Assembly: GCA_001767435.1 (NCBI GenBank)
Contig: MEKT01000147.1
Coordinates: 25,281-89,280 of the forward strand
From: Acidobacteria bacterium RIFCSPLOWO2_02_FULL_65_29
GTDB lineage: Bacteria > Acidobacteriota > Vicinamibacteria > Vicinamibacterales > CAVVIG01
DNA length: 64,000 bases
Reading direction: 5' to 3'
Both the position numbers and the translations under genes were made by a program. Shown here in pieces: positions 48,244-63,164 of this stretch. Position 1 is the first letter of the stretch, and every line of letters starts with the position of its first letter. Under the pieces are notes generated by a model. It did not search any database, had not been told where the DNA came from, and worked only from the letters and a program-made list of their open reading frames with translations.

Positions 48244-48504
48244 CCGCGCTTCACCTGCTACGCTTTTCTCACCGCTCGTGGAGCCTGGCCTCCGGTGGCC
48301 GAGCTTTCGGCCAGCTTGGCTCACCGAGACGCCAACAATGGACCGCCGGACCTTGGCGCGTGTCCTCCGATTCAGGCGGGCGCTGTCCGGAACGAGCGAC
48401 ACCGATTGGCCCTGTGCCATCGATTCTTCACGTCCGTGCCGTGATTGTTTCTCGCCGCGCCGCTCCCACGAGACAGGAAGGTCGTTTATGTCACACAACG
48501 AGCG

Positions 48505-48520
48505 TGGTATCGCCTTTGCT
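48505..48520 (+). promoter_or_regulatory. Candidate sigma-54 (-24/-12) promoter
   Basis: TGGTATcgcctTTGCT compared with the consensus TGGCAC-N5-TTGCW. GG-N10-GC spacing is exact. The -12 C is 15 nt before ATG 48534, giving a near-leaderless geometry. Confidence 0.45.
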
Positions 48521-48533
48521 ATTCGTGCCGGCG

Positions 48534-49199
48534 ATGATTTCTCAAGACGACCGCGATGGGCTCGACATGCACCCCAGCCAGGTTCAACCGATGGACGGAC
48601 CGACCTCAATCCGCAAAGTCAAGAAAACGGCGAAGCTTCGCGGCGTGTGGATTTCGTTCATCGGCCGGATCGTCGCGCAGATCCTCGGCGCCGTCGCCAG
48701 CATCGTGCTCGGTGTGATCGTGCTGCACGAGTACCAGAGGACCGCGCAGCCCGTCGCGGCCAAAGCGCGGATCGTGCGCGCCGTTCACGACACGGCCGCC
48801 GGCGGCAGTTCTATCGCCGTGTTGCCGCTTGCTGATTTTTCGGCCGACGACCGCGACAGCTCCCTGGCGGACGCGATCACGGAGGCGGTCATCACCGATC
48901 TCGCGCAGGCTGAGGGTCTCCGAGTGATCTCACGCACATCGACCATGCCCTACAAAGCCACGCAGAAAACCGTGCCCGAGATCGGCCGTGAGCTGGATGT
49001 CGATCTGATCCTCGAGGGCTCGATTGTGCAATCCGGCGGACGCGTGCGCGTGACGGCCCAGCTCATCGATGCCGCCACCGACGAGCACGTCTGGGCGCGA
49101 AGCTACGAGCGCACGCTCGACAACGTGCTGGCCATGCAGGCCGACATCGCCAAGGCGATCAGCCGAGACGTCAGCGTCGCGGGCGCCGCGGCGCGATAG
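48534..49199 (+). CDS. Single-pass membrane protein with TolB-N-terminal-like periplasmic domain
   Basis: Chosen start is MISQDDRDG…. A TM helix (VWISFIGRIVAQILGAVASIVLGVIVL) is followed by …SIAVLPLADFSADDRDSSLADAITEAVITDLAQAEGLRVISRTS…RVRVTAQLIDAATDEHVWARSYER…. The ATGs at 48567 and 48591 are alternative starts. Confidence 0.65.
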   Translation: MISQDDRDGLDMHPSQVQPMDGPTSIRKVKKTAKLRGVWISFIGRIVAQILGAVASIVLGVIVLHEYQRTAQPVAAKARIVRAVHDTAAGGSSIAVLPLADFSADDRDSSLADAITEAVITDLAQAEGLRVISRTSTMPYKATQKTVPEIGRELDVDLILEGSIVQSGGRVRVTAQLIDAATDEHVWARSYERTLDNVLAMQADIAKAISRDVSVAGAAAR

Positions 49200-49283
49200 A
49201 TTCTCAGAGTGCCTTGCGGAATCGACCCACGAAACCCACACCACGATGGACACGGAGGACAGGAGGGCCAATCCAGTAGATTC

Positions 49284-50219
49284 TTAGATTCGAGAATCCG
49301 CCCGCAGCGTGAGCACCGGACACCGCGCTTGTCGTACCACCTGATTGGTCGTCGATCCGAAGAGGGCCAGATCGACCTGGCCCCGGCCCCGTACTCCGAT
49401 GACGATGAGGTCGGCGTGCTCCTCGTCGGCCGCTCGAAGGATTTCGACGTGCGACTTTCCGTCAGTGACCCTCAGTGTCGGCATGCTCTTCGCGCGGGCC
49501 TCGTCCGGGATGAGCGAGTCGAGGCGCGCCAGCGCGCTGGCGTACTGATACCGCCGGAAGTCGGCGAGCGCGGCCGCCTGCGCCGGCGGCAGCCCCTCGA
49601 AGGTCGGACGCGGCGGCTCCTGCCATGGCCACTCGAGCGCGTGGACGACGACGAGCGCGGCGCTCGACTGCGCGGCGAGCGAAAACGCCGCCGCCAGGGC
49701 CGCCAGCGAGGACTCCGAAAAATCGACGGCGCAAAGGATCCGCGTGAACGGCAGCCGCGACGCCCCGTGCACGCGGGGAGGCACGGTCAGCACCGGGCAC
49801 GACGCCTTGCGCAGCACCTTCTCGGTGACCGATCCAATCAGCAAGCGCTCGAACCCGCTCGTGCCGTGCGTGCCCATCACGATCAGATCGGCGGGCAGCG
49901 TGGACGCGCGCTCGAGGATTCTGGCGGCCGGCGCTCCGGCATCGACCAGAACGTCCACGCCGATGCCCACGCCGGCCGCCGCGCCGAAGCAGGCGGAGGT
50001 CTGCTCCCGCAGGCGCGGGACGTCGGCATCGGGCCCCTGATCCTCTGGCACCGGCAAATCGTGTATCGGCGCCAGCCGCGGGTACACGTGCAGCGCGGTA
50101 ATGGCGGCGCGGTACCATCTGGACAGCACCAACGCGTGTTCGATCGCGTGACGCGAAGTATCCGAGAAATCGATCGGACAGAGAATGCGCGAGATCACGA
50201 ACTCACGCATGCTCGTCAT
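49284..50219 (-). CDS. Universal stress protein, tandem UspA domains
   Basis: 311 aa. Two USP units, each ending in the G-x2-G-x9-G(S/T) ATP motif region (…VMGTHGTSGFERLLIGSVTEKVLRKASCPVLTV… and …VIGVRGRGQVDLALFGSTTNQVVRQARCPVLTL…). Confidence 0.88.
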   Translation of the reverse strand: MTSMREFVISRILCPIDFSDTSRHAIEHALVLSRWYRAAITALHVYPRLAPIHDLPVPEDQGPDADVPRLREQTSACFGAAAGVGIGVDVLVDAGAPAARILERASTLPADLIVMGTHGTSGFERLLIGSVTEKVLRKASCPVLTVPPRVHGASRLPFTRILCAVDFSESSLAALAAAFSLAAQSSAALVVVHALEWPWQEPPRPTFEGLPPAQAAALADFRRYQYASALARLDSLIPDEARAKSMPTLRVTDGKSHVEILRAADEEHADLIVIGVRGRGQVDLALFGSTTNQVVRQARCPVLTLRADSRI

Positions 50220-50415
50220 GATCGGTCCGGCGGAACACGAGCAGCCGTGAGCCGCGCGACAGTTCCTCCGTCAAGCGGCCGGGATCCGGTCGCTGCACTT
50301 CCTCCCACTCGTCGTGCAACCCCATGATGGCGTTGGCGGCCGCCGCGACTTGGCCGAGGTCTGAACCTGGAAACCGGCGCCGCAGGATGGTTTCGATCTT
50401 CTGTCTGTCCACCAT
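50203..50415 (-). CDS. Small hypothetical protein (70 aa) upstream of the tandem USP
   Basis: Trimmed to MVDRQKIETILRRRFPGSDLGQVAAAANAIMGLHDEWEEV…. Preceded by gggggtggga. Overlaps the USP start by 17 nt. Confidence 0.45.
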   Translation of the reverse strand: MVDRQKIETILRRRFPGSDLGQVAAAANAIMGLHDEWEEVQRPDPGRLTEELSRGSRLLVFRRTDHDEHA

Positions 50416-50449
50416 GCTTCCCACCCCCGTTCCGAACGAAACCGTGACA

Positions 50450-50465
50450 TGCAAACGACCGGCCG
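50450..50465 (-). promoter_or_regulatory. Candidate sigma-54 (-24/-12) promoter for the sORF-USP operon
   Basis: Minus strand reads CGGCCGgtcgtTTGCA with exact GG-N10-GC spacing. About 24-nt leader to ATG 50415. Confidence 0.4.
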
Positions 50466-50509
50466 TGGGGTCCCGGATCGACTGAGATCGACCGGTTGCG
50501 GTGGACTGC

Positions 50510-50525
50510 TGCCGAGTTCCCGGCA
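50510..50525. promoter_or_regulatory. 16-bp dyad TGCCG-N6-CGGCA (candidate regulator-binding site / UAS)
   Basis: TGCCGAGTTCCCGGCA, in the divergent spacer between the sORF-USP operon and the pentaheme cytochrome gene. One mismatch to the copy at 54933. Confidence 0.6.
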
Positions 50526-50553
50526 GGAGATCGCCTTTCAAATTCGAGCTTCG

Positions 50554-50569
50554 TGGTATATCGTTTGGT
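50554..50569 (+). promoter_or_regulatory. Weak sigma-54-like element upstream of the cytochrome gene
   Basis: TGGTATatcgtTTGGT. The -24 half is identical to the 48505 site, but the -12 half has GG instead of GC. Confidence 0.2.
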
Positions 50570-50623
50570 GACGCGATGGACGGCCGCGGCCCGAACGCCG
50601 CGCCGCAGAGGAGACACCGCACG

Positions 50624-51373
50624 ATGAATCGTCGAATAGGCGTGATCCTGTTTTGGGCGGCAACGGCGGTGGCGGCGCCGGCGTTTGCCCAACTCAATCA
50701 GAGCCGGTGCGCGGACTGCCATTACGCGAACCCCAGCTCGCCGCGCCAGGATCACCTCCAGGAATGGGACCGTTCACCGCATTCGCGCAACAACGTCGGG
50801 TGCGAGAAGTGCCACGGGGGCGACCCGGCCCAGTTCGAGCCGTTCCTCGCGCACCGCGGCATCCTGAATTCGTCGAACAAAGCCAGCCCGGTCAATCGTC
50901 GCAATCTTCCCACGACGTGCGGGGCGTGCCACGTCGGACCGTTCGTGGCGTTTCAAGACAGCCGCCACTATCAGCTGCTGCAATCGGGCGACGAGAAGGG
51001 CCCCAGCTGCTCCACCTGCCACGGCGACACCGACGGCCGGCTGCTCTCGCCAAAGGCGCTGGCTTCAGAGTGCAACCAATGCCATGGACCCGGCGAGCAG
51101 GTGCCACGGGCCGAACGCGCGCGCCTGGTGCGCGACCAGTACGATGGCCTCACCGTCGTGCGCGCGCAGATGAAACTCGCGCAGTCGCTCATCAGACGCG
51201 TGTCCGACAAGGGCCGGCGGGCCGAGTACGACGAGGCGCTGAACCAGGCTCAGGTGCCGCTGACGCGCGCGGTGAACGCCGGCCACAAGTTCGTCTACGA
51301 CGAACTGAGGGAATATCTCGGCGTCGCGCAGCAGCGCGTCGAGGCGCTGCTGAACAGACTCGCCAATCGCTGA
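50624..51373 (+). CDS. Pentaheme c-type cytochrome, secreted
   Basis: Trimmed to MNRRIGVILFWAATAVAAPAFA… Five CxxCH motifs: CADCH, CEKCH, CGACH, CSTCH and CNQCH. Confidence 0.85.
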   Translation: MNRRIGVILFWAATAVAAPAFAQLNQSRCADCHYANPSSPRQDHLQEWDRSPHSRNNVGCEKCHGGDPAQFEPFLAHRGILNSSNKASPVNRRNLPTTCGACHVGPFVAFQDSRHYQLLQSGDEKGPSCSTCHGDTDGRLLSPKALASECNQCHGPGEQVPRAERARLVRDQYDGLTVVRAQMKLAQSLIRRVSDKGRRAEYDEALNQAQVPLTRAVNAGHKFVYDELREYLGVAQQRVEALLNRLANR

Positions 51374-51386
51374 CGAAAACCCGGCA
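51371..51386. promoter_or_regulatory. 16-bp dyad, variant copy (TGACGAAAACCCGGCA)
   Basis: Overlaps the cytochrome stop codon. About 114 nt upstream of the predicted start site of the 51467 promoter. A weaker half-conserved copy, TCGCGGAGTTTCGGCA, lies at 51403-51418. Confidence 0.45.
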
Positions 51387-51466
51387 TCGACCCGAGCGCC
51401 CGTCGCGGAGTTTCGGCAGCAAGCGCCTCGGATGCTCAGCCTGGCAGTGGAGCCGAGTCTCACGCC

Positions 51467-51482
51467 TGGCATGCGCCATGCT
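51467..51482 (+). promoter_or_regulatory. Candidate sigma-54 (-24/-12) promoter for the USP-Yip1 operon
   Basis: TGGCATgcgccATGCT. Best -24 match in the window, with exact GG-N10-GC spacing. About 40-nt leader to ATG 51533. Confidence 0.5.
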
Positions 51483-51532
51483 GCAAGAGATGTCGGCCGT
51501 CGATAGCGTTCTCTTTTCGAGAGGGCTGTCTC

Positions 51533-52042
51533 ATGATCACGCTCAAGAACGTCCTCGTGGCGACCGACTTCGGCCGGGCATCGGAGACCGCGCTCGCGTA
51601 CGGCCGACAGTTCGCTCGGGCCTACGGCGCGAAACTCCACGTGCTCCACGTGGTGGAGAACGTGTTCACGGCGACCTTCGGAGTGGAGGGATACGTGACG
51701 AATGTCGCGGCCCTGCAGCGCGAGGTCGAGGAAGCCGCGCGCAAGCAGCTCGACGCCGTGGTCACCGAGGACGATCGGCGCGAGCTCGGCGCCACGGGGG
51801 TGACGCTCACGTCGGCCTCGCCCGCACTCGCGATCGTCTCGTACGCGAAGGACATCAAAGCCGATCTGATGATCGTCGGCACACACGGCCGCGGCGCGAT
51901 GGCGCATCTCATCATGGGCAGCGTCGCCGAGCGGGTCGTGCGGACGGCGCCGTGTCCGGTGCTCACCGTGCGGCACCCGGAGCACGAGTTCGTGCTGCCC
52001 GACGCGCTGCAGGTCGTGGAGCGGTCCGCCCAACAGCCGTAA
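51533..52042 (+). CDS. Universal stress protein (single UspA domain)
   Basis: 169 aa. MITLKNVLVATDFGRASETAL… and …LMIVGTHGRGAMAHLIMGSVAERVVRTAPCPVLTV…. Confidence 0.9.
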   Translation: MITLKNVLVATDFGRASETALAYGRQFARAYGAKLHVLHVVENVFTATFGVEGYVTNVAALQREVEEAARKQLDAVVTEDDRRELGATGVTLTSASPALAIVSYAKDIKADLMIVGTHGRGAMAHLIMGSVAERVVRTAPCPVLTVRHPEHEFVLPDALQVVERSAQQP

Positions 52043-52098
52043 GGACTCGTCCGCGACGAATACTGAGAACCAAGTCCGCTAGACGGAGGTGGCGCGTG

Positions 52099-52629
52099 AT
52101 GGTCTTCGCGTACCGCATCATGGGCGCCGCGATGCTCGACCAGGCGACCTTCGAGGAAATCGAGGGCGACCGAACGGCGACCGCTCAGGCGATGGGCGTC
52201 GTGCTGCTCGCGAGTCTCTCTGCGGGCATCGGGCTGGGCGGACTCGACGCCGGCCATCCCGTCTCGTTCGTGTTTGTGAGCGGTGCCGCCCTGCTCACGT
52301 GGGCCGTGTGGGCCCTCGTGACTTTCCAGGTGGGCGCGCGGCTCCTGCCCGAACCGCAGACCCGCGTCGATGTCGGCGAGCTGCTTCGCACGCTCGGCTT
52401 CTCGGCAGCGCCGGGTCTCCTGCAGGTCTTCGGCGTCGTACCCGGGTTGAGGGGACCGCTGTTCGCGTTCACGGCTGTCTGGATGCTGGCGTCGATGGTT
52501 GTCGCCGTGCGCCAGGCGCTCGACTACTCGACGATCGCCCGAGCATTCGCCGTGTGCGTCATCGGCTGGCTTCTGGCGTTCACAATCGCGGTGATTCTCG
52601 GACTCGTCTACGGCCCAACTCTTTCGTGA
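52099..52629 (+). CDS. Yip1-domain family membrane protein
   Basis: Extracted from the tail of ORF 50653..52629. ATG 52099 is preceded by GGAGGT. 176 aa, MVFAYRIMGAAMLDQATFEEIEGDRTATAQAMGVVLL… with 5 TM helices. Confidence 0.7.
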   Translation: MVFAYRIMGAAMLDQATFEEIEGDRTATAQAMGVVLLASLSAGIGLGGLDAGHPVSFVFVSGAALLTWAVWALVTFQVGARLLPEPQTRVDVGELLRTLGFSAAPGLLQVFGVVPGLRGPLFAFTAVWMLASMVVAVRQALDYSTIARAFAVCVIGWLLAFTIAVILGLVYGPTLS

Positions 52630-52636
52630 ACGGTCC

Positions 52637-52690
52637 CAAATCCTCAAGTCCTCACATCCTCAAATCCTCAAATCCTCAAATCCTCAAATC
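52637..52690 (+). repeat. Tandem octamer array AATCCTCA, about 7 units
   Basis: Reading: caaatcctca agtcctca catcctca aatcctca aatcctca aatcctca aatcc. Lies between convergent genes. Confidence 0.95.
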
Positions 52691-52700
52691 CGCGATCTAC

Positions 52701-53177
52701 CTAGGGCACTTGCATCGACGCGACGTGCTTCACGACGTTGCTGATGCGCACCTTCGCCAGTGTGTCCGAGGGATCGAGACCTCGGAAGATCGGCCCCCAC
52801 ACGGGCATCTCCCTCGTGCCGTGCGCCGGACTGGGCTCGCCTCCGTTGGTCACGAACGCCTCGATGCGCGCGGCCGGAAATGTGCCGGCGCTCTTGCGGG
52901 CGATGAGTGTCAGGTCGGCGGGAGGGACCTTCAGTGCAGCCGCCACCGGCCCGTGGCCCCTGCCGTCGCGGCCGTGGCAGGAGGCGCAGTAGAAATCGAA
53001 CAGATCCCGGCCCGTGATCGAATCGATGACGAGTGGCGGATTCCGCTGGCCTATGGTCTGGCCGGCAGAGCCGATGGCCGAGGCCCCTGTCAAGAATGTC
53101 AAGAATGTCAAGCATGTCAAGACTGTCAAGAATGCCGATGCTGTCAGCAACAGCGCGCCTTGCGCACGCAGGCCCAT
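52701..53177 (-). CDS. Monoheme class I c-type cytochrome, secreted
   Basis: 158 aa. One CASCH heme motif and a distal …REMPVWGP… Met ligand region. The hydrophobic core of the signal peptide (LTVLTCLTFLTFLT) is encoded by a 9-bp tandem repeat. Confidence 0.8.
   Translation of the reverse strand: MGLRAQGALLLTASAFLTVLTCLTFLTFLTGASAIGSAGQTIGQRNPPLVIDSITGRDLFDFYCASCHGRDGRGHGPVAAALKVPPADLTLIARKSAGTFPAARIEAFVTNGGEPSPAHGTREMPVWGPIFRGLDPSDTLAKVRISNVVKHVASMQVP
53089..53133 (-). repeat. In-frame 9-bp tandem repeat x5 (TTCTTGACA on the coding strand)
   Basis: Plus strand reads gtcaagaat gtcaagaat gtcaagcat gtcaagact gtcaagaat. The coding strand carries five TTGACA hexamers at a 9-nt period. Confidence 0.95.
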
Positions 53178-53225
53178 GATGTCTCTCCGTTCTCGTGTTG
53201 CGTCACCAGCTGAGGACCGTCCCTA

Positions 53226-54845
53226 TCAACCCATCTCCGCCGGCATCGCGGGCTCCCTCCTGGGCTCGGGTACCTCGGTCAACGTCGCCTCGGTGAGGAG
53301 GAGAACGCCGGCGACCGAGACGGCATTCTCGAGCGCGATTCGCACGACCTTGGTCGGGTCGATGATTCCGGCCTCGATGAGATCGACGTAGACGCCGCGG
53401 CTGGCGTCGAAGCCGTAGCCGCCGCTGCCGCCCATCATGCGATCGACGACGACGCCGCCGTCGGCGCCAGAGTTGGCGGCGATCTGCCGCGTCGGTATTT
53501 CGAGCGCGCGCCTGAGCATCAACGCACCCGTCCGCTCGTCGCCGGCCGACGCCGACGCCACGCGATCGACCGCCGCGATCGACCGAAGCAGCGCGAGGCC
53601 GCCGCCTGGCACGATGCCCTCGGCCATCGCCGCCCGGGTCGCGCTGATCGCGTCGTCAAACGCCTCGCGCCGGTTCTTCATCTCGGCTTCCGAGGGTGCG
53701 CCCACCCGAATCACGGCGACGCCGCCGGTCAGCTTCGCCAGCCGTTCCTGCAGCTTTTCGCGATCGTAATCGGACGTGGTCGTCTTCATCTGCTCGCGTA
53801 TCTCGTTGGCGCGCCCATCGATCGCCGCCTTGGTGCCGGCGCCGCCGACGATCGTCGTGGAATCCTTGTCGGCGATGACGCGTTTGGCCTGCCCAAGATC
53901 GGGCAGCGTCACGTTCGCCAGCTTGACGCCGATCTCCTCGGCGATCAATCGCCCGCCCGTCAGAATCGCGAGATCGTCCAGCATCGCCCGGCGACGATCG
54001 CCGAAACCGGGCGCCTTGACAGCCACACAGGGGAGCACGCCGCGGACCTTGTTCACCACGAGCGTGGCGAGTGCGTCGCCCTCGATGTCGTCGGCGACAA
54101 TCAGCAGCGCCTTGCCGCTCTTCGCGATTTGCTCGAGGAGAGGCAGCAAGTCCGTCATCGTGCCGATCTTCTTCTCGTAGATGAGGATGACCGGATCGTC
54201 GAGCACCGCCCGCATCTTCTCGGGCTCGGTGATGAAGTAGGGGGACAGGAAACCGCGGTCGATCCGCATGCCCTCGACGACCTCGACGGTCGTCTCGATG
54301 CCCTTGGCCTCCTCGACCGACGTCGTGCCCTCCGCACCGATCCGTTCCATGGCGTCGGCGACGATTTCGCCGATTGCCGTGTCGTTGTGCGCCGACACCG
54401 TGGCCACCTGCACGCGCTGCTTGTGATCGGCAACCGGGCGCGACAGCTCCCGGAGGCCCGCCACCACGGCCGCGAGCGCGCGATCGAGCCCGCGCTTGAG
54501 CTCGATGGCGCTCGCGCCCGCGGCGATGTTGCGCACGCCCTCGCCGAAGATCGACGTGGCGAGCAGCGTGGCGGTGGTCGTGCCGTCTCCGACGTTGTCG
54601 CCCGTGCGCTCGGCCGCCTCGCGAATCACCTGGGCGCCCAGGTTCTCCTCATGGTCGGCGAGCTCGAACTCTTTCGCGATCGTCACGCCGTCGTTGCAGA
54701 CGAGCGGCTTGCCCCACTTCTTCTCGATGAGGACGCATTTCGATTTCGGCCCGAGGGTGACGCGAACCGCGTCGGCCAGCGCGTTGGCGCCCTTCAGGAT
54801 CTTCTCGCGCGCGGCGGATTGAACGAGGAGTTGTTTGTGCGACAT
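53226..54845 (-). CDS. groEL: Chaperonin GroEL (Cpn60), no adjacent groES
   Basis: 539 aa. …[20 protein letters not shown]… and …[11 protein letters not shown]… signatures. The C-terminus lacks a GGM repeat tail. The upstream neighbour is a CBS gene rather than groES. Confidence 0.93.
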
Positions 54846-54857
54846 GATCCGCGCCTG

Positions 54858-54873
54858 TGCAAAGAGCTCGCCG
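54858..54873 (-). promoter_or_regulatory. Candidate sigma-54 (-24/-12) promoter for groEL
   Basis: Minus strand reads CGGCGAgctctTTGCA with exact GG-N10-GC spacing. The -12 C is 14 nt before the groEL ATG, there is no Shine-Dalgarno sequence, and the geometry is near-leaderless. Confidence 0.4.
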
Positions 54874-54932
54874 CCATCGCGTCAGCGCCACAGCGCCACC
54901 GCCGGAATCGCCGCGCCTCGAGCTGGATCCAC

Positions 54933-54948
54933 TGCCGAATTCCCGGCA
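54933..54948. promoter_or_regulatory. 16-bp dyad TGCCG-N6-CGGCA (candidate regulator-binding site / UAS)
   Basis: TGCCGAATTCCCGGCA. Centred about 93 nt upstream of the predicted groEL start site. Confidence 0.6.
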
Positions 54949-55042
54949 CCCGCTGGAGTGACTAAGGCCTTGGCCTTGGATTTCGGCCTCTTTTCGCGGG
55001 TCGCCCCGGGCACGACCCATGCGATAGCGAGGCGCGTGCGAC

Positions 55043-55495
55043 TCACCACGCCCGCTTGCCGGTGCGCTGCTTGCGGTGCGGCACACGATAATGAATGTCC
55101 GCCCGTATGGCCCGTTCCGGACGTCCGACGCCTCCCCCGACCAGTTCGAGCAGGTCCGAAATCGTCACGATACCCACGAGGCGCCGGCCATCGACGACCG
55201 GCAGGCAGCCGATCGTCCGGCCGCGCATGAGGTTGGCAGCCTTGCGAACCGTGGCGTCCGATTCGATCGTCGCGACGCGGGTCGTCATCAACTCGGCGAC
55301 GATGGCGCCGGCGCGAACTCGGGCGCCGCTCCGGCCGCCAGCGTCGCGGTCCGAGAGCACTCCGAGAATCTCCGTCCCGGCGGTGACGATAAGATGATGG
55401 ATGCGCTTGCGCCGCATCAGGTCCCATGCTTGGTCGGCCGGCATGGTGGCCGGCACGGTCTGCACACCCTCGGTCATGACTTCGGCAACTCTCAT
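55043..55495 (-). CDS. CBS-pair domain protein
   Basis: Trimmed to MRVAEVMTEGVQTVPATMPADQAWDLMRRKRIHHLIVT… with GGAGG 5 nt upstream. Second CBS motif …VAELMTTRVATIESDATVRKAANLMRGRTIGCLPVV…. Confidence 0.85.
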   Translation of the reverse strand: MRVAEVMTEGVQTVPATMPADQAWDLMRRKRIHHLIVTAGTEILGVLSDRDAGGRSGARVRAGAIVAELMTTRVATIESDATVRKAANLMRGRTIGCLPVVDGRRLVGIVTISDLLELVGGGVGRPERAIRADIHYRVPHRKQRTGKRAW

Positions 55496-55528
55496 AATGT
55501 CCTCCGGCGCGCGCAAGACCAGGTTTCA

Positions 55529-55544
55529 TACCGGAATCCCGGCG
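55529..55544. promoter_or_regulatory. Degenerate copy of the 16-bp dyad in the CBS/fdhA divergent spacer
   Basis: TACCGGAATCCCGGCG, 12 of 16 identical to the 54933 copy. Confidence 0.25.
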
Positions 55545-55597
55545 CCTTTCGATCGCTGTGCAAGGACGATACCCGCCGGCGGGTGGAAGGCGGCAGC

Positions 55598-58297
55598 ATG
55601 ATCGCCGCGCCCGTCGCCGGCGCCGCGCCCACGCTGTCGGTCGAGGTCAACGGTGCGCCCGACACACTTCCCGCCGGCGCAACGATTCTCGACGCGCTGC
55701 GCGCGGCGGGCGTGCACCTTCCGACCCTCTGCCACGACGAGCGGCTGACGCCGATCGGCGTGTGCCGGCTGTGCCTCGTACGCGTTCAGGGATGGGCGCG
55801 GGCAGTGCCCGCCTGCTCCACGCCGCTTCTCGACGGCATGCGCATCGAGACGAATGCTCGTGACCTGGAGGACGCGAGGCGTACGGCTCTGACGCTCCTC
55901 GCGCGGCGCTATCCGGCCGACGGCGTCGAGCGCGATCCGCACAAGGAGTTTCACCGCGCGATTCTCGAGCACGGCCTCGAACGCGAGTTGCTCCAAGCAT
56001 CTGCCCCGGGCCCGATCGATCGCTCGCACCCCTACATCGCCGTGGACATGTCGCGCTGCATCGACTGCTATCGCTGCGTCCGGATCTGCGACGAGGTGCA
56101 AGGGCAGTTCGTCTGGCACGTCCGCGATCGCGGGCTGGACACGCAAATCGTGCCCGACGGTCCGAGCCTGTTCGAGAGCTCGTGCGTCGGCTGTGGCGCG
56201 TGCGTGGACACGTGTCCGACCGGAGCGCTCGACGACGCCGCTCGGAGCCGCCTGGGCGCGGCGTCGGCCTGGACGAACACGACCTGTCCGTACTGCGGCG
56301 TCGGATGCGAAATGTCAGTCGGCGCGCGGGACGGCCGGATAGTCGCCGTCAAGCCGGTGCTGGATGCACCGGTGAACAAGGGCCATCTCTGCGTGAAAGG
56401 CCGGTACGCGTTCGAGTTCGTTGGCGCCGACGATCGCGTTCTGGATCCGATGATTCGCACCGGCGGCCAGTGGCGGTGCACCTCGTGGGACGAGGCCCTG
56501 ACGTTCGCAGCGGCGCGGCTTGGCGATCTGGTGGCCCGCCACGGACCCGACAGCGTCGGCGTGCTGGGATCGGCGCGCGCGACCAACGAGGAGAACTACC
56601 TCGCGCAGAAGTTCGCGCGCGTCGTGCTGGGCACCAACAACGTCGATTGCTGCGCGCGCGTCTGTCATGCGCCAAGCGCCGCGGCGCTGAAGCACTCGCT
56701 CGGCACAGGCCTCGGCACGAACTCGTTCGACGACATCGAAATCGCCAGGACGATCCTCGTCTGCGGCGCGAACCCGACGGAGAACCATCCGGTCGTCGGC
56801 GCCCGCATCAAGCAGGCGGTCCGGCGGGGCGCGGCGCTGATTGTCGTCGACCCGCGGCGAATCGAGCTGGCGTCCCTGGCAACCTGTCATCTCGCCGTGC
56901 GCCCCGGCACCAACGTCCCGCTCCTGAACGCGATGGCGCACGCGATCCTCGCCAAGGATCTGGTGGACCGGAGGTTCCTCGAAGCCCGCGTCGACGGTGT
57001 CGAGACGTTCGCCCGGAGCGTCGAGGCCTGGACGCCCGAGCGGGCCGCGGTCGTCTGCGGCGTCGACGCCGAACTGATTCGCCGCGCGGCCAGACTCTAC
57101 GCCACGAGGGCGCCCGCCATGAGCATCCACGGCCTGGGGCTCACCGAACACGTCCAGGGCACCGACGGCGTCACGCTGCTCATCAACCTCGCGCTCCTCA
57201 CGGGCAATATCGGCAAACCCGGCACCGGCATCAACCCGCTGCGCGGCCAGAACAACGTGCAGGGCGCGGCGCACATGGGCTGCGAACCGAACACGCTGCC
57301 AGGCGCCGCGTCGCCGAAGGACGGACGCGCCGTGTTCGAGCAGGCGTGGAAGCGCGAGATCCCCTCCACGCACGGACTCCACCTGCTGCACATGATGGAT
57401 GCGGCGCTCGACGGCCGCTTCAACGCGTTGTGGACGATCGGCTACGACGTGCTGCTCACCAACGCGAACGCCTCGGAGACCGTTCGCGCGATGCGCGCGC
57501 TCGATCTGGTCATCGTTCAGGACCTCTTCCTGACCGAGACCGCGCGCGAGGTGGGGTCGGTGTTCTTCCCCGCGTGCTCGTCGCTCGAAAAGGACGGCAC
57601 GTTCATGAATGCCGAACGGCGGATCCAGCGCGTGCGGCAGGTCGTCCGACCGCTCGGGCAATCGAGACCAGACTGGCGGATCATCTGCGACCTGGCGCGC
57701 GCCATGGGCCACGGTGAACTGTTCGATTTCCGCGAGCCGGAAGCGATCTGGAACGAGGTGCGCGCGCTCTGCGAGGGCGCGCGCGGCATGAGCTACGCGC
57801 GTCTCGATCGCGGGGGGCTGCAGTGGCCCTGCCCCTCCGAGGATCACCCCGGCACGAGCATCCTGCACCGAGACAGCTTCGCCGCCGGACCGCGCGCGGT
57901 GCTCCACGGCGTGGCCTACCAGCCGAGCCGGGAATCCACGGGGCCGGAGTACCCCTTCGTGCTCAACACCGGACGCTCGCTTTACCAGTTCAACGCGGGC
58001 ACGATGACCGGACGGACGCCGAACAACGCCCTCCGCCCCTCAGACCTGCTCGACATGTGTCCAGACGACGCGGATCGGCTCGGGCTGAGCGAGGGCGACA
58101 CCGCGCGCGTCATCAGCCGGTATGGCTCCGCGGTGCTGCCGGTCCGGCTGAACGCCGGCGTCCAGCCGGGACAGCTGTTCGCCACGTTTCACACGCCCAG
58201 CATCTTTCTGAACTCCACCACCGGATCCCACCGGGACGGCGCCACGGGCACGCCGGAGTACAAGGTGGCGGCGGTGCGCGTCGAACGGACCGCGTGA
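55598..58297 (+). CDS. fdhA: Formate dehydrogenase alpha subunit, Mo-bisPGD enzyme with NuoG-like N-terminal Fe-S domains (Cys type)
   Basis: Trimmed to MIAAPVAGAAPTLSVEVNG… with GGAAGG upstream. 2Fe-2S (…CHDERLTPIGVCRLCLV…), 4Fe-4S motifs (CIDCYRCVRIC, CVGCGACVDTCP), TTCPYCGVGCEM…KGHLCVKG, and active-site ARVCHAPS (Cys-His, no in-frame TGA). Confidence 0.88.
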   Translation: MIAAPVAGAAPTLSVEVNGAPDTLPAGATILDALRAAGVHLPTLCHDERLTPIGVCRLCLVRVQGWARAVPACSTPLLDGMRIETNARDLEDARRTALTLLARRYPADGVERDPHKEFHRAILEHGLERELLQASAPGPIDRSHPYIAVDMSRCIDCYRCVRICDEVQGQFVWHVRDRGLDTQIVPDGPSLFESSCVGCGACVDTCPTGALDDAARSRLGAASAWTNTTCPYCGVGCEMSVGARDGRIVAVKPVLDAPVNKGHLCVKGRYAFEFVGADDRVLDPMIRTGGQWRCTSWDEALTFAAARLGDLVARHGPDSVGVLGSARATNEENYLAQKFARVVLGTNNVDCCARVCHAPSAAALKHSLGTGLGTNSFDDIEIARTILVCGANPTENHPVVGARIKQAVRRGAALIVVDPRRIELASLATCHLAVRPGTNVPLLNAMAHAILAKDLVDRRFLEARVDGVETFARSVEAWTPERAAVVCGVDAELIRRAARLYATRAPAMSIHGLGLTEHVQGTDGVTLLINLALLTGNIGKPGTGINPLRGQNNVQGAAHMGCEPNTLPGAASPKDGRAVFEQAWKREIPSTHGLHLLHMMDAALDGRFNALWTIGYDVLLTNANASETVRAMRALDLVIVQDLFLTETAREVGSVFFPACSSLEKDGTFMNAERRIQRVRQVVRPLGQSRPDWRIICDLARAMGHGELFDFREPEAIWNEVRALCEGARGMSYARLDRGGLQWPCPSEDHPGTSILHRDSFAAGPRAVLHGVAYQPSRESTGPEYPFVLNTGRSLYQFNAGTMTGRTPNNALRPSDLLDMCPDDADRLGLSEGDTARVISRYGSAVLPVRLNAGVQPGQLFATFHTPSIFLNSTTGSHRDGATGTPEYKVAAVRVERTA

Positions 58298-60048
58298 AAT
58301 TCACCGCGCTCGCGCTCGACTACGACGGCACCATCGCCGTCGACGGCCGGTTCCATCCGGCCGTCCGTCAGGCGATCGGTGACGTGCGGCGGCAGGGCAT
58401 CGCGGTGGTGCTCGTCACGGGCCGCCGTCTGGCCGACCTGCATCAGGTGGCCGGCGATCTGACCTGTTTCGACGTCGTGGTCGGCGAGAACGGCGCCGTG
58501 CTCGAATTTCCGTCGAGCGGCCGGCACGTGACGATCGGGCACCGGCCGCACCCCGGCGTCGTCCGCGAGCTCCAACGGCGAGGCGTCGCGGTCGCAGCCG
58601 GAGAATCGATCATCGAGGCGGAGGCCGCGGCGGCGCCGATTGTCCTCGACGTGATTCGCACGCTCGAGCAGCCGCTCGTCCTTCTGTTCAACAGGAACCG
58701 GTTGATGATCCTGCCGCAGGCCATCGCGAAGTCCAGGGGACTGCGCGAAGCGCTGTTTGCGCTCCGGCTGTCCATTCACAACACCGTCGGCGTGGGTGAC
58801 GCCGAGAACGACCACGACCTGCTCGACGCGTGCGAAGTGGGCGTGGCGGTCGGCTGGGGCAGCCCAGCGCTTCGCGCCGTCGCGGACGAAGTCATCGATG
58901 GCGCCGGCCCCGAGGCCGTGGCCGAGTACATCAGGCGCGTCTCGAGGCAGACGCGGCTGTCGGCGGCGCAAATGGGCAGGCGCCGGCTGCTTGTCGGGCA
59001 CCAGCACAACGGCGACCCGGTGGAGCTGACCGTGCGAGGGAGGACGATTCTCATCGCCGGGGAGCCGGGCACGGGGAAATCGTGGCTCGCGGGACTCCTC
59101 TGCGAACAGTTGATTCTGCAGGGCTACTGCCTCTGCATCATCGATCCCGAGGGCGATTACCGCTCGCTCGAGGAGCTGCCGAGCGTGATCACGCTCGGGG
59201 GCGACGATCCGCCGCCGAGCGCGCGCGAGATTGCGCGCGCGCTGCGTCATCCCGACGTGAGCGTGATCGTGGACCTCTCAAGAGTCTCGCACCGCCAAAA
59301 GTTCCAGTACCTCACCACGCTGCTGCCGCTGCTCGTGAGCCTCAGACGCCGAACCGGCCTGCCCCACAAGATCCTCCTCGACGAGGCCCACTATTTCCTT
59401 GGAGGAGGCGACAGCGCGCAGCTCATCGATCCCGAGCTCGCCGGCTACATTCTCGTGACCTACAGGATCTCGGGACTCGATCCGTCGATCCGGACGACCA
59501 GCGACGCCGTCGTCATGGTGACCCACGAGACCGACCCGCTCGAGGCCGAGACGATTCGGAGCCTCTGCCGGCTCCCGGCGGGCGTGATCGTGCCGACCGA
59601 CGTGTTCCACAGTCTCGCGTTGAACGAGGTGGCGTTGCTGCCGGGGGTCGAAGAATCTCAGGGCCGGGTTCGGCGTTTTCAGCTCGCGCCCCGCCTCACC
59701 GCGCACGTTCGCCACCAATCCAAGTACCTCGACATGCCGGTGACCGAGGACCGGGCGTTCGTCTTCAGCGTTGGTGGACATTCCGGACCCCGCGTGAGGA
59801 CGCTCAAGGCGTTCATCGGGCTGCTCGCCGCTTTGCCCGCCGAAGAGATTGCGGCCCACCTTGGCCGCCACGATTTCTCGCGGTGGATCTTGGAGGTCTT
59901 CCGAGACGGTCCGCTGGCGGCGCACCTGCGGGGCATCGAGGACCGGGCCGACGGAGAGGAAACGCGCGACACCATCGAGGCGATCGCGCAGGCGATCCGG
60001 GCCCGGTACGAAGCCGTTGCCGAACCCGGAGCGCCGCTGCAGGATTGA
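58294..60048 (+). CDS. Fusion protein: HAD-IIB (Cof-type) phosphatase domain + HerA/DUF87-like P-loop ATPase + unassigned C-terminal domain
   Basis: GTG start overlaps the fdhA stop (GTGA). HAD motifs LDYDGT, VLVTGR and GVGDAENDHDLL. ATPase motifs IAGEPGTGKSW (Walker A), IIDPEGDY and ILLDEAHYF (Walker B). C-terminus …LGRHDFSRWILEVFRDGPLAAHL…. Confidence 0.75.
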   Translation: MKFTALALDYDGTIAVDGRFHPAVRQAIGDVRRQGIAVVLVTGRRLADLHQVAGDLTCFDVVVGENGAVLEFPSSGRHVTIGHRPHPGVVRELQRRGVAVAAGESIIEAEAAAAPIVLDVIRTLEQPLVLLFNRNRLMILPQAIAKSRGLREALFALRLSIHNTVGVGDAENDHDLLDACEVGVAVGWGSPALRAVADEVIDGAGPEAVAEYIRRVSRQTRLSAAQMGRRRLLVGHQHNGDPVELTVRGRTILIAGEPGTGKSWLAGLLCEQLILQGYCLCIIDPEGDYRSLEELPSVITLGGDDPPPSAREIARALRHPDVSVIVDLSRVSHRQKFQYLTTLLPLLVSLRRRTGLPHKILLDEAHYFLGGGDSAQLIDPELAGYILVTYRISGLDPSIRTTSDAVVMVTHETDPLEAETIRSLCRLPAGVIVPTDVFHSLALNEVALLPGVEESQGRVRRFQLAPRLTAHVRHQSKYLDMPVTEDRAFVFSVGGHSGPRVRTLKAFIGLLAALPAEEIAAHLGRHDFSRWILEVFRDGPLAAHLRGIEDRADGEETRDTIEAIAQAIRARYEAVAEPGAPLQD

Positions 60049-60071
60049 GAGATGGGGCTAGTGTCCCGTCA

Positions 60072-60752
60072 CTAGGCGCTCTTCGCGGCTGGACCGCTCT
60101 TGGGCGTTCCTTCAGTTCGCCCCGCGCGGGCCAGAAGCTGCCGCACCTCTTCGTCGGTCGTCTGGGCGAATTGCTGATACCAGAGGCCGACCGCCTGAAA
60201 CGGCTCGGGCCTCTGCAAACAGACGACCTCGTCGGCCATGCGGCCGAGCCGGTCGCAGGTGTCTCGAGCGCCCACGGGGACCGCCACGACGATCCGAGAT
60301 GGCTGCAGCCGCCGCAGCGCGATCACCGCCGCCTCCATGGTCGAACCGGTCGCCAGACCGTCATCGATCAGGATGACGAGGTGGCCGCGAACGGGAACGA
60401 GCGGGCGGCCCCCGCGAAAGAGCTGGTCGCGCCGATCCAACTCGAGGCGTTCGCGCACGGCAGTCTGCTGGACGAGCGTGCGCGGGATGCCCAAGTCCCG
60501 AATCAAATCCTCGCTCAGCACCTCGACGCCGCCCTCCGAGATCGCGCCCATCGCCAGCTCCTGGTGCCCCGGCACGCCGAGCTTGCGGACCAGAAACACG
60601 TCGAGCGGGACGCGGAGCTGTTCGGCCACTTCATACGCCACGGGCACGCCGCCGCGCGGCAAGGCGAGCACGACGACGTCGGCGCGCCCCGCGTAGGTCG
60701 CCAGGCGAACGGCCAGCTGGCGCCCGGCGTCGATTCGATCGTTGAAACGCAT
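60072..60752 (-). CDS. Phosphoribosyltransferase-family protein
   Basis: Trimmed to MRFNDRIDAGRQLAVRLATYAGRADVVVLALPRGGVPVAYEVA… PRPP-binding loop VILIDDGLATGSTM. Confidence 0.82.
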   Translation of the reverse strand: MRFNDRIDAGRQLAVRLATYAGRADVVVLALPRGGVPVAYEVAEQLRVPLDVFLVRKLGVPGHQELAMGAISEGGVEVLSEDLIRDLGIPRTLVQQTAVRERLELDRRDQLFRGGRPLVPVRGHLVILIDDGLATGSTMEAAVIALRRLQPSRIVVAVPVGARDTCDRLGRMADEVVCLQRPEPFQAVGLWYQQFAQTTDEEVRQLLARAGRTEGTPKSGPAAKSA

Positions 60753-60754
60753 CG

Positions 60755-61201
60755 TCAATCCGCTCCCGCGCGAGACGCAGCCCTCACAACACGGCGGCCC
60801 GGCCGCGGGTGTGTTTTCACCGCCCCGCGGCGCCGACGTGCGTAGTCCTGCAGTTCCCGCCGCGCCTTGTCGAAGACCTCGCGAAGGACGACGCGCGCAT
60901 CCTTGCGCGTCGCGTCGACCTCCGTGCGCTTGGTCGCTGCCAGCGCCTCGAGGCGCCGCTCGGTCGCGCGCAGCCGGGGCGCGTGGCTGACGACGATGTC
61001 CTCGCCGGGTACGCCCAAGTCGACACGCACCTGAAACCGGTTGCCGTGGAGCCGGTGGCGGTGCGGGATCTCCACGATCACCCGACAGGATATGATGTCG
61101 CGGCAATACGTAGCGAGCTTGGCCACGCGCCGGCGAATGTCGGCGTCGATCCACTCGGTAGACTTCAGATTGTGAAACTTGATCTCCAGGGGTGCCTGCA
61201 T
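60755..61201 (-). CDS. HPF/RaiA (S30AE)-like ribosome-associated protein
   Basis: Trimmed to MQAPLEIKFHNLKSTEWIDADIRRRVAKLATYCRDIISCRVIVEIPHRHRLHGNRFQVRVDLGVPGEDIVV…, the beta-alpha-beta-beta-beta-alpha YfiA-like pattern. Its stop lies 2 nt from the PRTase start. Confidence 0.65.
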   Translation of the reverse strand: MQAPLEIKFHNLKSTEWIDADIRRRVAKLATYCRDIISCRVIVEIPHRHRLHGNRFQVRVDLGVPGEDIVVSHAPRLRATERRLEALAATKRTEVDATRKDARVVLREVFDKARRELQDYARRRRGAVKTHPRPGRRVVRAASRAGAD

Positions 61202-61226
61202 CGATCGAACCTCGACGGTAGACAGA

Positions 61227-61242
61227 AGCACAAACGACGCCA
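61227..61242 (-). promoter_or_regulatory. Candidate sigma-54 (-24/-12) promoter for the HPF-PRTase operon
   Basis: Minus strand reads TGGCGTcgtttGTGCT with exact GG-N10-GC spacing. About 15-nt leader containing GAGG. Confidence 0.4.
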
Positions 61243-61282: not shown

Positions 61283-61298
61283 TGCCGAATACCCGGCA
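61283..61298. promoter_or_regulatory. 16-bp dyad TGCCG-N6-CGGCA (candidate regulator-binding site / UAS)
   Basis: TGCCGAATACCCGGCA, in the divergent HPF / acs spacer. Centred about 75 nt upstream of the predicted HPF start site. Confidence 0.6.
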
Positions 61299-61379
61299 AA
61301 GTCTCCGGCGACTCGGCGGTCGATGTCACAATGGCCCACCGCGGACTGAGCAAGACCTTTGCAGGCAAGAGGATGGCTC

Positions 61380-63164
61380 ATGGCGTCTGACGCTTCTCTT
61401 CCAGCCTCGGGTACGCGCTGGCCCGCCATCACCAAACCGCGGAGCGATTGGAACGTCGTCCCCAACCTGGTGGACTACGACCGGACGCGCGCCGCGTTCT
61501 CGTGGGAGAACGCCCGCCGCGACCTCGATGGCCTGCCCGGCGGCCGTGGGTTGAATATCGCCCACGAGGCGGTGGACCGCCACGCCGCTGGCCGCCTCGC
61601 CACGCGCGTCGCCATCAGATGGCTGTCGAAAGACGGCCAGCGCAGGGAGCTCACCTACGCCGACCTGCGCGAGGGGACCAGCCGCTTCGCCAACGTGCTC
61701 CAGGCGCTCGGCATCGGCAACGGCGACATCGTGGCGGCGCTTGCCGGGCGCATTCCGGAGCTCTACATCGCGGCGCTCGGCACGATCAAGAACGGCAGCG
61801 TGTTCACGCCTCTCTTCTCCGCATTCGGCCCCGAGCCGATTCAGACTCGGATCAACATCGCCAAGGCCAGAGTGCTCGTGACCACCCCTGCCTTGTACCA
61901 GAAGAAAGTCGAAGCCCTGCGCGGATCCTTGCCAAGTCTCGAACACGTGTTGCTGGTCGGCGCTGGCGCATCGTTCGCTGGGACGCGCGACCTCGCCGCG
62001 CTCATGGCCGGAGCCGACAGCCAGTTCGTCATCCCGCCCACCGATCCGAACGACGTCGCGCTTCTGCACTTCACCAGCGGCACGACTGGCAAGCCCAAGG
62101 GGGCGGTCCACGTTCACGAGGCCGTCGTCGCGCACCACGCGACCGCCCGTTTCGCGCTCGATTTTCATGACGACGACATCTTCTGGTGCACGGCCGATCC
62201 GGGCTGGATCACCGGCACGTCCTACGGCATTATCGCGCCGCTGACGCACGGCCTGACGAGCATTGTCGATGAAGCGGACTTCGACGCCGAACGGTGGTAC
62301 ACGATTCTCGAGAAAGAGCGCGTCACGGTCTGGTACACCGCGCCGACGGCGATCCGCATGCTGATCAGGACGGGAGCGGCGGCGGCGCGAGCGCGTGATT
62401 TCCGATCGTTGCGCTTTCTGTCGAGCGTCGGCGAGCCCCTCAATCCCGAGGCCGTGCGCTGGGGCGTCGAGGCGTTTGGTCGTCCGTTCCACGACAACTG
62501 GTGGCAGACCGAGACAGGCGGCATCATGATCGCCAACTTCGCGGCCTCCGAGGTCAGGCCCGGTTCGATGGGGCGGCCGCTTCCGGGTATCGACGCCGCC
62601 ATCGTGCGGCGCGTCGACAATCGGATCGAGGTCATCGACGAGCCTGGCATCCAGGGCGAGCTCGCGCTCAAGCCGGGCTGGCCGTCGATGTTCCGCGCGT
62701 ATCTGTCCGACGACGTACGCTATCGCCGGTGCTTCGCGGACGGGTACTACCTGACCGGCGATCTGGCGCGGCGCGATTCGGACGGCTATTACTGGTTCGT
62801 CGGACGCGCCGACGACGTCATCAAGTCGTCTGGCCACCTCATCGGACCGTTCGAGGTCGAGAGCGTCCTTGTCGAACATCCGGCCGTGGCCGAAGCCGGC
62901 GTCATCGGCAAGCCGGATCCGATTGCGCTCGAAATCGTCAAGGCCTTCGTCGCGCTCAAGCCCGGGTTCGAACCGAGCGAGACCCTGCGCCGCGAGCTGC
63001 TGGCCTTCACGCGCGTCAGGCTGGGTGCAGCGGTCGCGCCGAAAGAACTGGACTTCCGTCCGAGCATTCCGAAAAACCGCGCGGGCAAGATCATGCGCCG
63101 GTTGCTCAAGGCGCGCGAGCTCGGGCTGCCCGAAGGCGACACGTCCACGCTGGAGGCGTCATGA
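61380..63164 (+). CDS. AMP-forming acyl-CoA synthetase, acetate--CoA ligase (AcsA-type)
   Basis: Trimmed to [11 protein letters not shown]… AMP-binding motifs [13 protein letters not shown], …WWQTETGG… and …[40 protein letters not shown]…. Confidence 0.85.

Follow-up and report, generated by a model that had tools for sequence, protein, structure and literature searches.

The region between 48 and 62 kb of the window (the whole 64-kb stretch of DNA analysed here, from contig MEKT01000147.1 of Acidobacteria bacterium RIFCSPLOWO2_02_FULL_65_29) holds a cluster of genes comprising two operons for universal stress proteins (USPs), a groEL paralog, a CBS gene, the gene of a ribosome hibernation factor (HPF) together with a phosphoribosyltransferase gene, an acetyl-CoA synthetase gene, cytochrome genes and a TolB_N-like gene. 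Upstream of these genes lie short elements with the spacing of the -24/-12 promoters used by sigma-54, several of them accompanied by a 16-bp dyad. On the strength of sequence comparison, and with a probability of roughly 0.8, we read the cluster as a sigma-54 regulon of the stress/dormancy type in a Vicinamibacterales acidobacterium. The window has a G+C content of 66.7% and is ~90% coding; its groEL paralog occurs in exact copies on metagenome contigs from aquifer and soil, and the nearest named homologs belong to Vicinamibacterales, Acidobacteriota.

Elements of the -24/-12 type and their dyads

An earlier note on this DNA had proposed six candidate sigma-54 sites, five of them with exact GG-N10-GC spacing and a resemblance to TGGCAC-N5-TTGCW, and a weaker sixth at 50554. 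All six were recovered at their coordinates and strands with the sequences given there; the five do combine the exact spacing with the resemblance, and the sixth has GG instead of GC at -13/-12, which leaves it outside the motif. Sites were scored with a sigma-54 position weight matrix (PWM), and the predicted start site was taken as the -12 C plus 12 nt. The two strongest sites reach 14 bits each. One of them, at 48505..48520 on the plus strand (TGGTATcgcctTTGCT, read from 48505 as TGGTATCGCCTTTGCT; -12 C at 48519), ranks first in the window with a region-wise p of 0.003 and faces the gene of a TolB_N/FlgO-like membrane protein (48534..49199, plus strand; Pfam matches FlgO and TolB_N). The other, at 51467..51482 on the plus strand (TGGCATgcgccATGCT, read from 51467 as TGGCATGCGCCATGCT), ranks second, likewise with p = 0.003, and would serve a USP gene (51533-52042) followed by a Yip1-like gene (52099-52629) through a predicted leader of ~40 nt with a Shine-Dalgarno sequence inside.

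The remaining three sites score ~9 bits and occupy ranks 21-25 in the window because of deviations at -22/-21. On the minus strand, the putative promoter at 54858..54873 (CGGCGAgctctTTGCA, read from 54873 as CGGCGAGCTCTTTGCA; -12 C at 54859) precedes the stand-alone groEL paralog (53226..54845, minus strand), which is followed by a cytochrome c gene (52701-53177). That at 61227..61242, also on the minus strand (TGGCGTcgtttGTGCT, read from 61242 as TGGCGTCGTTTGTGCT), precedes the HPF gene (60755..61201, minus strand; Ribosomal_S30AE by Pfam), after which comes the phosphoribosyltransferase gene (60072-60752); its -12 C at 61228 is 27 nt away from ATG 61201, and a GAGG lies 8 nt ahead of this ATG. 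The last of the five, at 50450..50465 on the minus strand (CGGCCGgtcgtTTGCA, read from 50465 as CGGCCGGTCGTTTGCA; region-wise p = 0.032), has its -12 C at 50451, 36 nt before ATG 50415, and is a candidate promoter for an operon at 49284..50415 (minus strand) in which the gene of a 70-aa protein (50203-50415) is followed by a tandem USP gene (49284-50219), as delimited from gene calls, translations and Pfam on near-identical contigs. Two further elements are absent from the earlier note: a candidate at 55559..55574 on the minus strand (GGGTATcgtccTTGCA; region-wise p = 0.013) that faces the CBS gene (55043-55495, minus strand), and an element at 61348..61363 on the plus strand (GAGCAAGACCTTTGCA) upstream of the acetyl-CoA synthetase gene acs (61380-63164), which has the sigma-54 spacing with A at -25 and is kept in L171 and L172.

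In the region-wise test, the top match of each gene-oriented upstream region was compared with those in 1000 dinucleotide shuffles of the same region. Eight of the nine such regions between 48 and 62 kb gave p values of 0.003-0.052 (Fisher combined p = 3.8e-8), and the same test detected no enrichment on the non-promoter strands of these regions or in the convergent gaps.

At four of the sites, 51467, 48505, 54873 and 61242, the -24/-12 element is kept amid diverged flanks. The comparison drew on 80 metagenome loci collected around USP orthologs and 80 genome loci collected around orthologs of the groEL paralog, besides which closer relatives were compared through individual contigs; one of the latter, L169 (GroEL identity 95%), says nothing about conservation, most of its intergenic regions matching those of the window exactly. 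Wherever the USP ortholog has an upstream region to itself, TGGCAC-N5-nTGCT stands 23-57 nt before its ATG in DNA that is otherwise unalignable, as seen on more than 15 divergent metagenome contigs, and nine of the 16 PWM matches of at least 13 bits in 453 kb fall in a stretch of ~60 nt upstream of a USP start. The syntenic contig L170 keeps TGGCATaCGCCATGCT before its USP gene with diverged flanks. Direct alignment of the groEL upstream regions was abandoned, those of relatives at 82-87% identity not being alignable, and a motif-anchored comparison was therefore made instead: a match of at least 12 bits within 150 nt occurs on the forward strand of 22 of 82 groEL orthologs (27%) versus 2 of 82 (2%) on the reverse strand. 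Canonical sites stand before the groEL paralog in several phyla, and the taxa, according to record titles, include Pyrinomonadaceae, Blastocatellia, Myxococcota, Methylomirabilota and Planctomycetota; among individual contigs, L170 keeps CGGCGAGgTCcTTGCA and L140 has TGGCGTccggtTTGCT. At the HPF loci the 15 bases of TGGCGTCGTTTGTGC are invariant in four genomes, where the orthologs are 90, 76 and 66% identical and the flanks diverge, and the remoter HPF orthologs of L089 and L092 are preceded by CGGCA(C/T)gatcgTTGC. Orthologs of the CBS gene carry CGGCACcaatgCTGCA (L008) and AGCAAGcgtcTTGCA (L006), and good sites precede orthologs of the 70-aa gene (CGGCACtgctgTTGCT in L036, CGGCATgtcgcTTGCG in L058).

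A matrix of 28 curated sites yields (T/C)GGCA(C/T)G-N4-TTGC(T), which reproduces the canonical sigma-54 consensus, reportedly TGGCACG-N4-TTGCW in the compilation of Barrios et al. 1999. The elements are present, non-randomly placed and conserved, and activator genes adjoin the same genes in relatives. Their sequences support a sigma-54 reading for 48505, 51467, 54873 and 61242; for 50465 such a promoter is plausible, with moderate support.

The 16-bp dyad was said in the earlier note to lie 75-115 nt upstream of four of the sites, and the distances from dyad centre to predicted start agree with this. They amount to -114.5 for the USP promoter (TGACGAAAACCCGGCA, 51371..51386, one mismatch), -93.5 for groEL (TGCCGAATTCCCGGCA, 54933..54948, exact), -78.5 for the 50465 promoter of the 70-aa gene (TGCCGAGTTCCCGGCA, 50510..50525, exact) and -74.5 for HPF (TGCCGAATACCCGGCA, 61283..61298, exact), the last dyad being at -83.5 for the 61348 element. 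The window contains three exact copies of TGCCG-N6-CGGCA versus a mean of 0.39 in shuffles, among which three copies were never reached in 100 trials. The dyads of the USP and groEL regions are kept in L170 as TGACGAGAAGCCGGCA and TGCCGGAAATCCGGCA, respectively; that of HPF, TGCCGG....TCGGCA, is invariant in the four HPF loci and keeps its spacing of ~37-39 nt to the -24 element. Strict dyads in relatives mostly lie between -140 and -70 from the predicted start sites, and the dyad is best read, from its sequence and position, as the upstream site of an activator. The idea of a CRP/FNR-like class II site at -41.5 was dropped in view of the conserved -24/-12 elements and the -75 to -115 spacing. 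Two looser dyads complete the set. A dyad-like sequence at 48298..48311 (GCCGAGCTTTCGGC) has an exact GCCG-N6-CGGC around an A/T-rich centre and lies ~226 nt upstream of the predicted start of the 48534 gene, farther upstream than the other dyads, and it is uncertain as an activating site of that gene. A weak dyad, TACCGGAATCCCGGCG, occupies 55529-55544, just downstream of the predicted start of the 55559 candidate.

The 50554 element (50554..50569, plus strand; TGGTATATCGTTTGGT), upstream of a multihaem cytochrome c gene (50624-51373), is probably not a sigma-54 site and was rejected as one, neither the window nor L170 having the -12 GC. Its first part, TGGTATATCG at 50554-50563, is kept in L170 (~4590-4600, minus strand) as part of TGGTATATCGTgTGAC. 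It may be an extended -10 (TGnTATATc); a simple sigma-70 scan did not report an extended -10 at this position.

Distances between promoter and start codon

At two genes the -24/-12 element stands close to the start codon, as had been claimed for both: the -12 C of the groEL site (54859) precedes ATG 54845 by 14 nt with no Shine-Dalgarno sequence, and that of the 48505 site (48519) precedes ATG 48534 by 15 nt. The groEL ATG has no in-frame alternative, and the N-terminus MSHKQ aligns with the paralog family. For the TolB_N/FlgO-like gene the real start is most likely ATG 48534, not the 48591 chosen by the gene caller; the N-terminal extension that it adds, MI(S/F/A)(Q/K/H)D, is kept in the homologs P0122, P0124 and P0125.

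Similar distances recur among relatives. They are 15 nt for the TolB_N-like genes of three genomes, the orthologs in L167 and L168 carrying TGGTACggccgTTGCT at the identical distance from the conserved ATG; 14 nt (window), 15 nt (L170), 14 nt (L140) and 17 nt (L160) for groEL paralogs; 15 nt for each of two HPF genes; and 14 nt for each of two Fdh-like genes. At L170:5346-5375 (minus strand), TGGCACtgccaTTGCG places the called start of a 237-aa gene, absent from the window, 15 nt after the -12 C. A short spacing of 14-17 nt with no Shine-Dalgarno sequence is found in at least five gene families, in which the bases between the -12 C and the start are not conserved. A properly spaced Shine-Dalgarno-like 4-mer is missing from 10 of 11 short-spacing promoters, and one is present 3-8 nt before the start in 15 of 16 promoters with a spacing of at least 23 nt. 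The start codon is ATG in both window genes and GTG in the groEL of L170 and the Fdh-like gene of L096.

The offset survey took every site of at least 10 bits in 1.56 Mb, measured its distance to the first start and set it against weak-site controls. Offsets of 14-15 nt were found for 11 of 97 sites versus 10 of 401 controls (p = 5.7e-4). Those of 19-24 nt were depleted (p = 0.023), and those of 25-29 nt formed another maximum (p = 0.007), in which a Shine-Dalgarno sequence lies 6-8 nt before the start. Two modes of this kind would be expected if transcription began ~12 nt after the C and the leader were either absent or long enough for a Shine-Dalgarno sequence.

From this geometry, transcription of groEL and the 48534 gene would begin 0-4 nt before the start codon and their mRNAs would be translated as leaderless, with 5' ends predicted 2-3 nt ahead of the ATG or, should initiation move to the purine, exactly at the A. 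The other units would have either a minimal leader of 11-17 nt with room only for the Shine-Dalgarno sequence, or a longer one. That the transcripts of both genes are truly leaderless is a prediction we favour, if by a little; the geometry itself, as judged from the aligned loci, is a conserved feature and deserves experiment. An ATG at 61373 was also considered as a leaderless start for acs and was found to be out of frame.

The best-placed competing explanation grants the sigma-54 promoters and holds that the groEL and 48534 messages are not leaderless, either through starts farther upstream (read-through from CBS, or a second promoter) or through Shine-Dalgarno-independent initiation on a longer leader, the 14-15 nt spacing then having some other cause. 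CBS and groEL are indeed co-directional, and in L169 groEL begins 16 nt after the CBS gene, starts with GTG and has the Shine-Dalgarno sequence GGAGG, so that a leaderless arrangement is not a requirement. The GTG at two of the short-spacing genes is a poor codon for leaderless initiation in E. coli (work cited in PMC3616915), a leader of 2-3 nt, not of zero, would remain with the start predicted at 12 nt from the C, and our search of the literature for "leaderless" together with sigma-54 or RpoN returned only papers treating the two separately, with no published precedent for leaderless sigma-54 transcripts. We nevertheless think this explanation unlikely: the 14-15 nt are kept in orthologs while 13-14 intervening bases change and no Shine-Dalgarno sequence appears, offsets of 14-15 nt are five-fold enriched over controls with those of 19-24 nt depleted, and the same genomes use a strong GGAGG at other genes. 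The CBS-groEL junction itself differs between L169 (704-1175) and the window (54846-55495), which has a 197-nt spacer holding the dyad and the promoter; the junction was apparently rearranged or recombined not long ago.

The putative activator and the nature of the elements

Under the sigma-54 reading, each transcription unit would have its own -24/-12 promoter of the form (T/C)GGCA(C/T)G-N4-TTGC(T/A), activated from the 16-bp dyad TGCCGr-N4-yCGGCA centred ~75-115 nt upstream. The dyad would be bound by an NtrC-family activator (REC-AAA+-HTH_8) encoded outside the window, the hexamer of which would loop to the closed complex and open it with ATP. We infer the binding of sigma-54 to the elements and the identity of the activator from the sequences of the window and its relatives. 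Proteins with a GAFTGA motif are encoded beside orthologous genes in L036, L046, L080, L091, L151 and L162. A REC-Sigma54_activat-HTH_8 architecture characterises an orthologous group in L036, L080 and L151, with Pfam confirmation for L151 and L091. In L080 dyads and promoter occupy the gap between the activator gene and the USP gene, which are divergent; the activator gene of L036 stands downstream of the 70-aa gene. GAFTGA activators are known to act only with sigma-54, and the clade therefore almost certainly has this factor.

Several observations weigh against such a regulon. Neither rpoN nor a gene for a bacterial enhancer-binding protein was detected in the 64-kb window by RpoN-box pattern, GAFTGA/ESELFGH patterns or phmmer, and the RpoN box had no match in ~1.6 Mb of related loci. 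In many close relatives position -25 is occupied by A and not by G (AGCAAG), an unusual base there for sigma-54. This AGCAAG-N4-TTGCA(G) variant stands upstream of groEL, CBS and acs in Vicinamibacterales (L005:9901, L006:9960 and 19553 on the minus strand, L089:7918, L092:3434 on the minus strand, L093:2928 and, in the window, 61348-61363 on the plus strand); it always faces the gene, has the exact sigma-54 spacing and is partly palindromic (GCAA-N5-TTGC). The dyad lies just 40-55 nt upstream in L058, L060 and L090 and ~22-26 nt downstream of the predicted start in L005, L089 and L093, both of which are odd for an enhancer. At the position equivalent to 50465 the syntenic L170 has only a weak CGGCCAtggtcTCGCT (CGGCCA...TCGCT). 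The scores of three of the five sites (GGCGA, GGCCG and GGCGT at -24) do not rise above the coding background, and window-wide counts of PWM matches equal the Markov-shuffle expectation at every threshold; the scores themselves come from an approximation of the Barrios consensus and not from the published matrix.

Some of these points would suit elements that are functional without being sigma-54 promoters, namely operators of another protein (for example a dimer on GCAA-N5-TTGC) or sites of a different sigma factor, with the dyad as a repressor operator or a class II activator site. The variant without the GG doublet and its partial palindrome, the dyads downstream of or abutting the -24 element, the failure to find rpoN in the window and the ~1.6 Mb from relatives, and the 50554 element, conserved yet without GC, can all be cited for it. 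Set against more than 50 sites that fit the full (T/C)GGCAC(G)-N4-TTGC(T/A) with invariant GG-N10-GC spacing, the orientation of the sites towards the gene (2% on the reverse strand versus 27%), the GAFTGA activators encoded beside the same genes and dyads mostly at -70 to -140, this general explanation is in our view improbable. A narrower version of it, that some of the elements are operators and not promoters, is kept alive as a minority reading by the variant and the odd dyad placements. In the three loci with a downstream dyad (L005:9901-10000, L089:7918-8000 and L093:2928-3005) a dyad of the GCCGGAATTCCGGC type lies between the promoter-like element and the groEL Shine-Dalgarno sequence, and the upstream gene is divergent and very close; such a dyad may act in activation, in repression or in the service of the divergent gene.

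The weakest alternative, that the sites are functionless chance matches to GG-N10-GC in a genome of 67% G+C, can appeal to the whole-window counts, to a best score of 14.1 bits that is below the mean maximum of the shuffles and to the rank of three of the five sites among many matches inside coding DNA, and is made very improbable by enrichment confined to the gene-facing strand, by exact elements kept while their flanks diverge and by the same element before orthologs in unalignable DNA. The comparison with background suggested in the earlier note was split in its outcome: the whole-window count, which taken alone would have spoken against the sites by that note's own standard, showed no enrichment, and the gene-facing regions showed it. 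The whole-window count was set aside as a decisive test, being weak because coding DNA dominates the window; a plain PWM count failed where position-aware and comparative tests succeeded, which is a lesson of method.

Relation to known systems and further features

The system reconstructed here shares with canonical sigma-54 promoters of the glnAp2, nifH and pspA type the GG/GC spacing and flanking consensus, dyad activator sites ~70-140 nt upstream and nearby NtrC-family REC-AAA+-HTH_8 genes, the last seen here in relatives. It differs from them in its stress and dormancy genes in Acidobacteriota, in the 14-15 nt to the start codon and in the frequent A at -25. We know of no activator site of canonical sigma-54 systems that the dyad TGCCGG-N4-CCGGCA matches. 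In gene content it is strikingly similar to the DosR regulon of M. tuberculosis, which includes several USPs, a CBS protein (Hrp1-like), an S30AE/HPF-like protein, a phosphoribosyltransferase and a chaperone. DosR itself, of the LuxR/NarL type, acts at sigma-A promoters through a motif of the GGGACTnnAGTCCC type, and mycobacteria are not known to have sigma-54, so that the likeness may be taken as a functional analogy only.

Closer in mechanism is the NmpRSTU system of M. xanthus with its oxygen-utilisation regulon, in which, under hypoxia, the NtrC-like response regulator NmpR activates the sigma-54 promoters that drive USP and CBS-domain genes (PMC11841059). Both systems would place USP and CBS genes under NtrC-type control through upstream dyads. 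The NmpR site is GCGCA-N5-TGCGC in pairs 14-15 bp apart, and the present dyad, TGCCG-N6-CGGCA, usually occurs singly; moreover, M. xanthus belongs to another phylum, and the part of that report available to us describes no groEL paralog, HPF or leaderless geometry for its regulon (PMC11841059). The system of the window works like the NmpR type and is not a member of it. By analogy with NmpR and from the gene content, low oxygen or energy stress would be our guess at the inducing signal.

Leaderless mRNAs that start from a -10 element beside the open reading frame are documented in Deinococcus-Thermus (PMC12340547), in Actinobacteria and in S. meliloti (PMC3616915). They resemble the present case in a fixed short distance from promoter to start, in the absence of a Shine-Dalgarno sequence and in mostly ATG starts. 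In those organisms the element is a sigma-70/sigma-A -10 hexamer ~7 nt upstream, whereas here it is a sigma-54 -12 GC 14-15 nt upstream. A computational survey of 2025 (PMC12316311) predicts that GroEL/heat-shock and UspA genes of Planctomycetota and Bacteroidota are under sigma-54 control; it differs in that it mentions neither Acidobacteria (0 occurrences) nor the dyad nor the start-codon geometry.

Whether Vicinamibacterales and some of their neighbours fuse enhancer-dependent sigma-54 promoters directly to start codons, with a stress/dormancy regulon expressed in part from leaderless mRNAs, seems to us evenly balanced. This broader reading would include a promoter sub-class that tolerates A at -25 (AGCAAG-N4-TTGCA), and in some genomes the leaderless set would take in the gene of the ribosome hibernation factor itself. 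An all-or-none, ATP-dependent switch of transcription would then be coupled to translation without a Shine-Dalgarno sequence, for which intact 70S ribosomes could be used, possibly an advantage while ribosomes hibernate. Confirmation would mean that leaderless expression is not tied to -10 elements of the sigma-70 type, and would provide a natural system for studying how the choice of sigma-54 start sites is matched to translation initiation.

The analysis also defines a conserved sigma-54 regulon together with its promoter consensus and with candidates for the enhancer site and the NtrC-type activator. This regulon can be searched for in metagenome-assembled genomes and metatranscriptomes, and its gene content suggests a part in surviving periods of low oxygen or low energy. 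Soil and aquifers are rich in Acidobacteria of subdivision 6, on whose gene regulation we know of almost no published work.

The same gene set, with HPF, phosphoribosyltransferase and HAD genes, appears in another acidobacterial clade (L113-L128), where the upstream regions (e.g. L121:549-941) contain the palindrome GTCACTTCCAAAAGTGAC and further TGTGAC/GTCACA repeats. Encoded nearby (L115:1958-4219) is an activator of 753 aa that combines an AAA+ domain carrying GAFTGA with an N-terminal series of modules, PAS-like by eye, which suggests that a different regulator governs the same regulon in that clade. In L005 (11898-14299) genes for HSP20, archease and RtcB come after the groEL paralog; the rtcBA operon of E. 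coli is sigma-54-dependent via RtcR, and the association of the groEL paralog with RtcB may be meaningful.

Rfam and tRNA scans of the 64-kb window gave no matches. Further genes between 48 and 63 kb encode an Fdh-like oxidoreductase, a HAD/DUF87 protein and pyruvate dehydrogenase E1. Two tandem arrays lie in the same part of the window. One, at 52637-52691, lies between two convergent genes and comprises 6.9 copies of CAAATCCT. The other, at 53087-53146, comprises 5.2 copies of TGTCAAGAA inside the 5' end of the minus-strand cytochrome c gene, the signal-peptide region of which thereby contains LTFLTFLT repeats.

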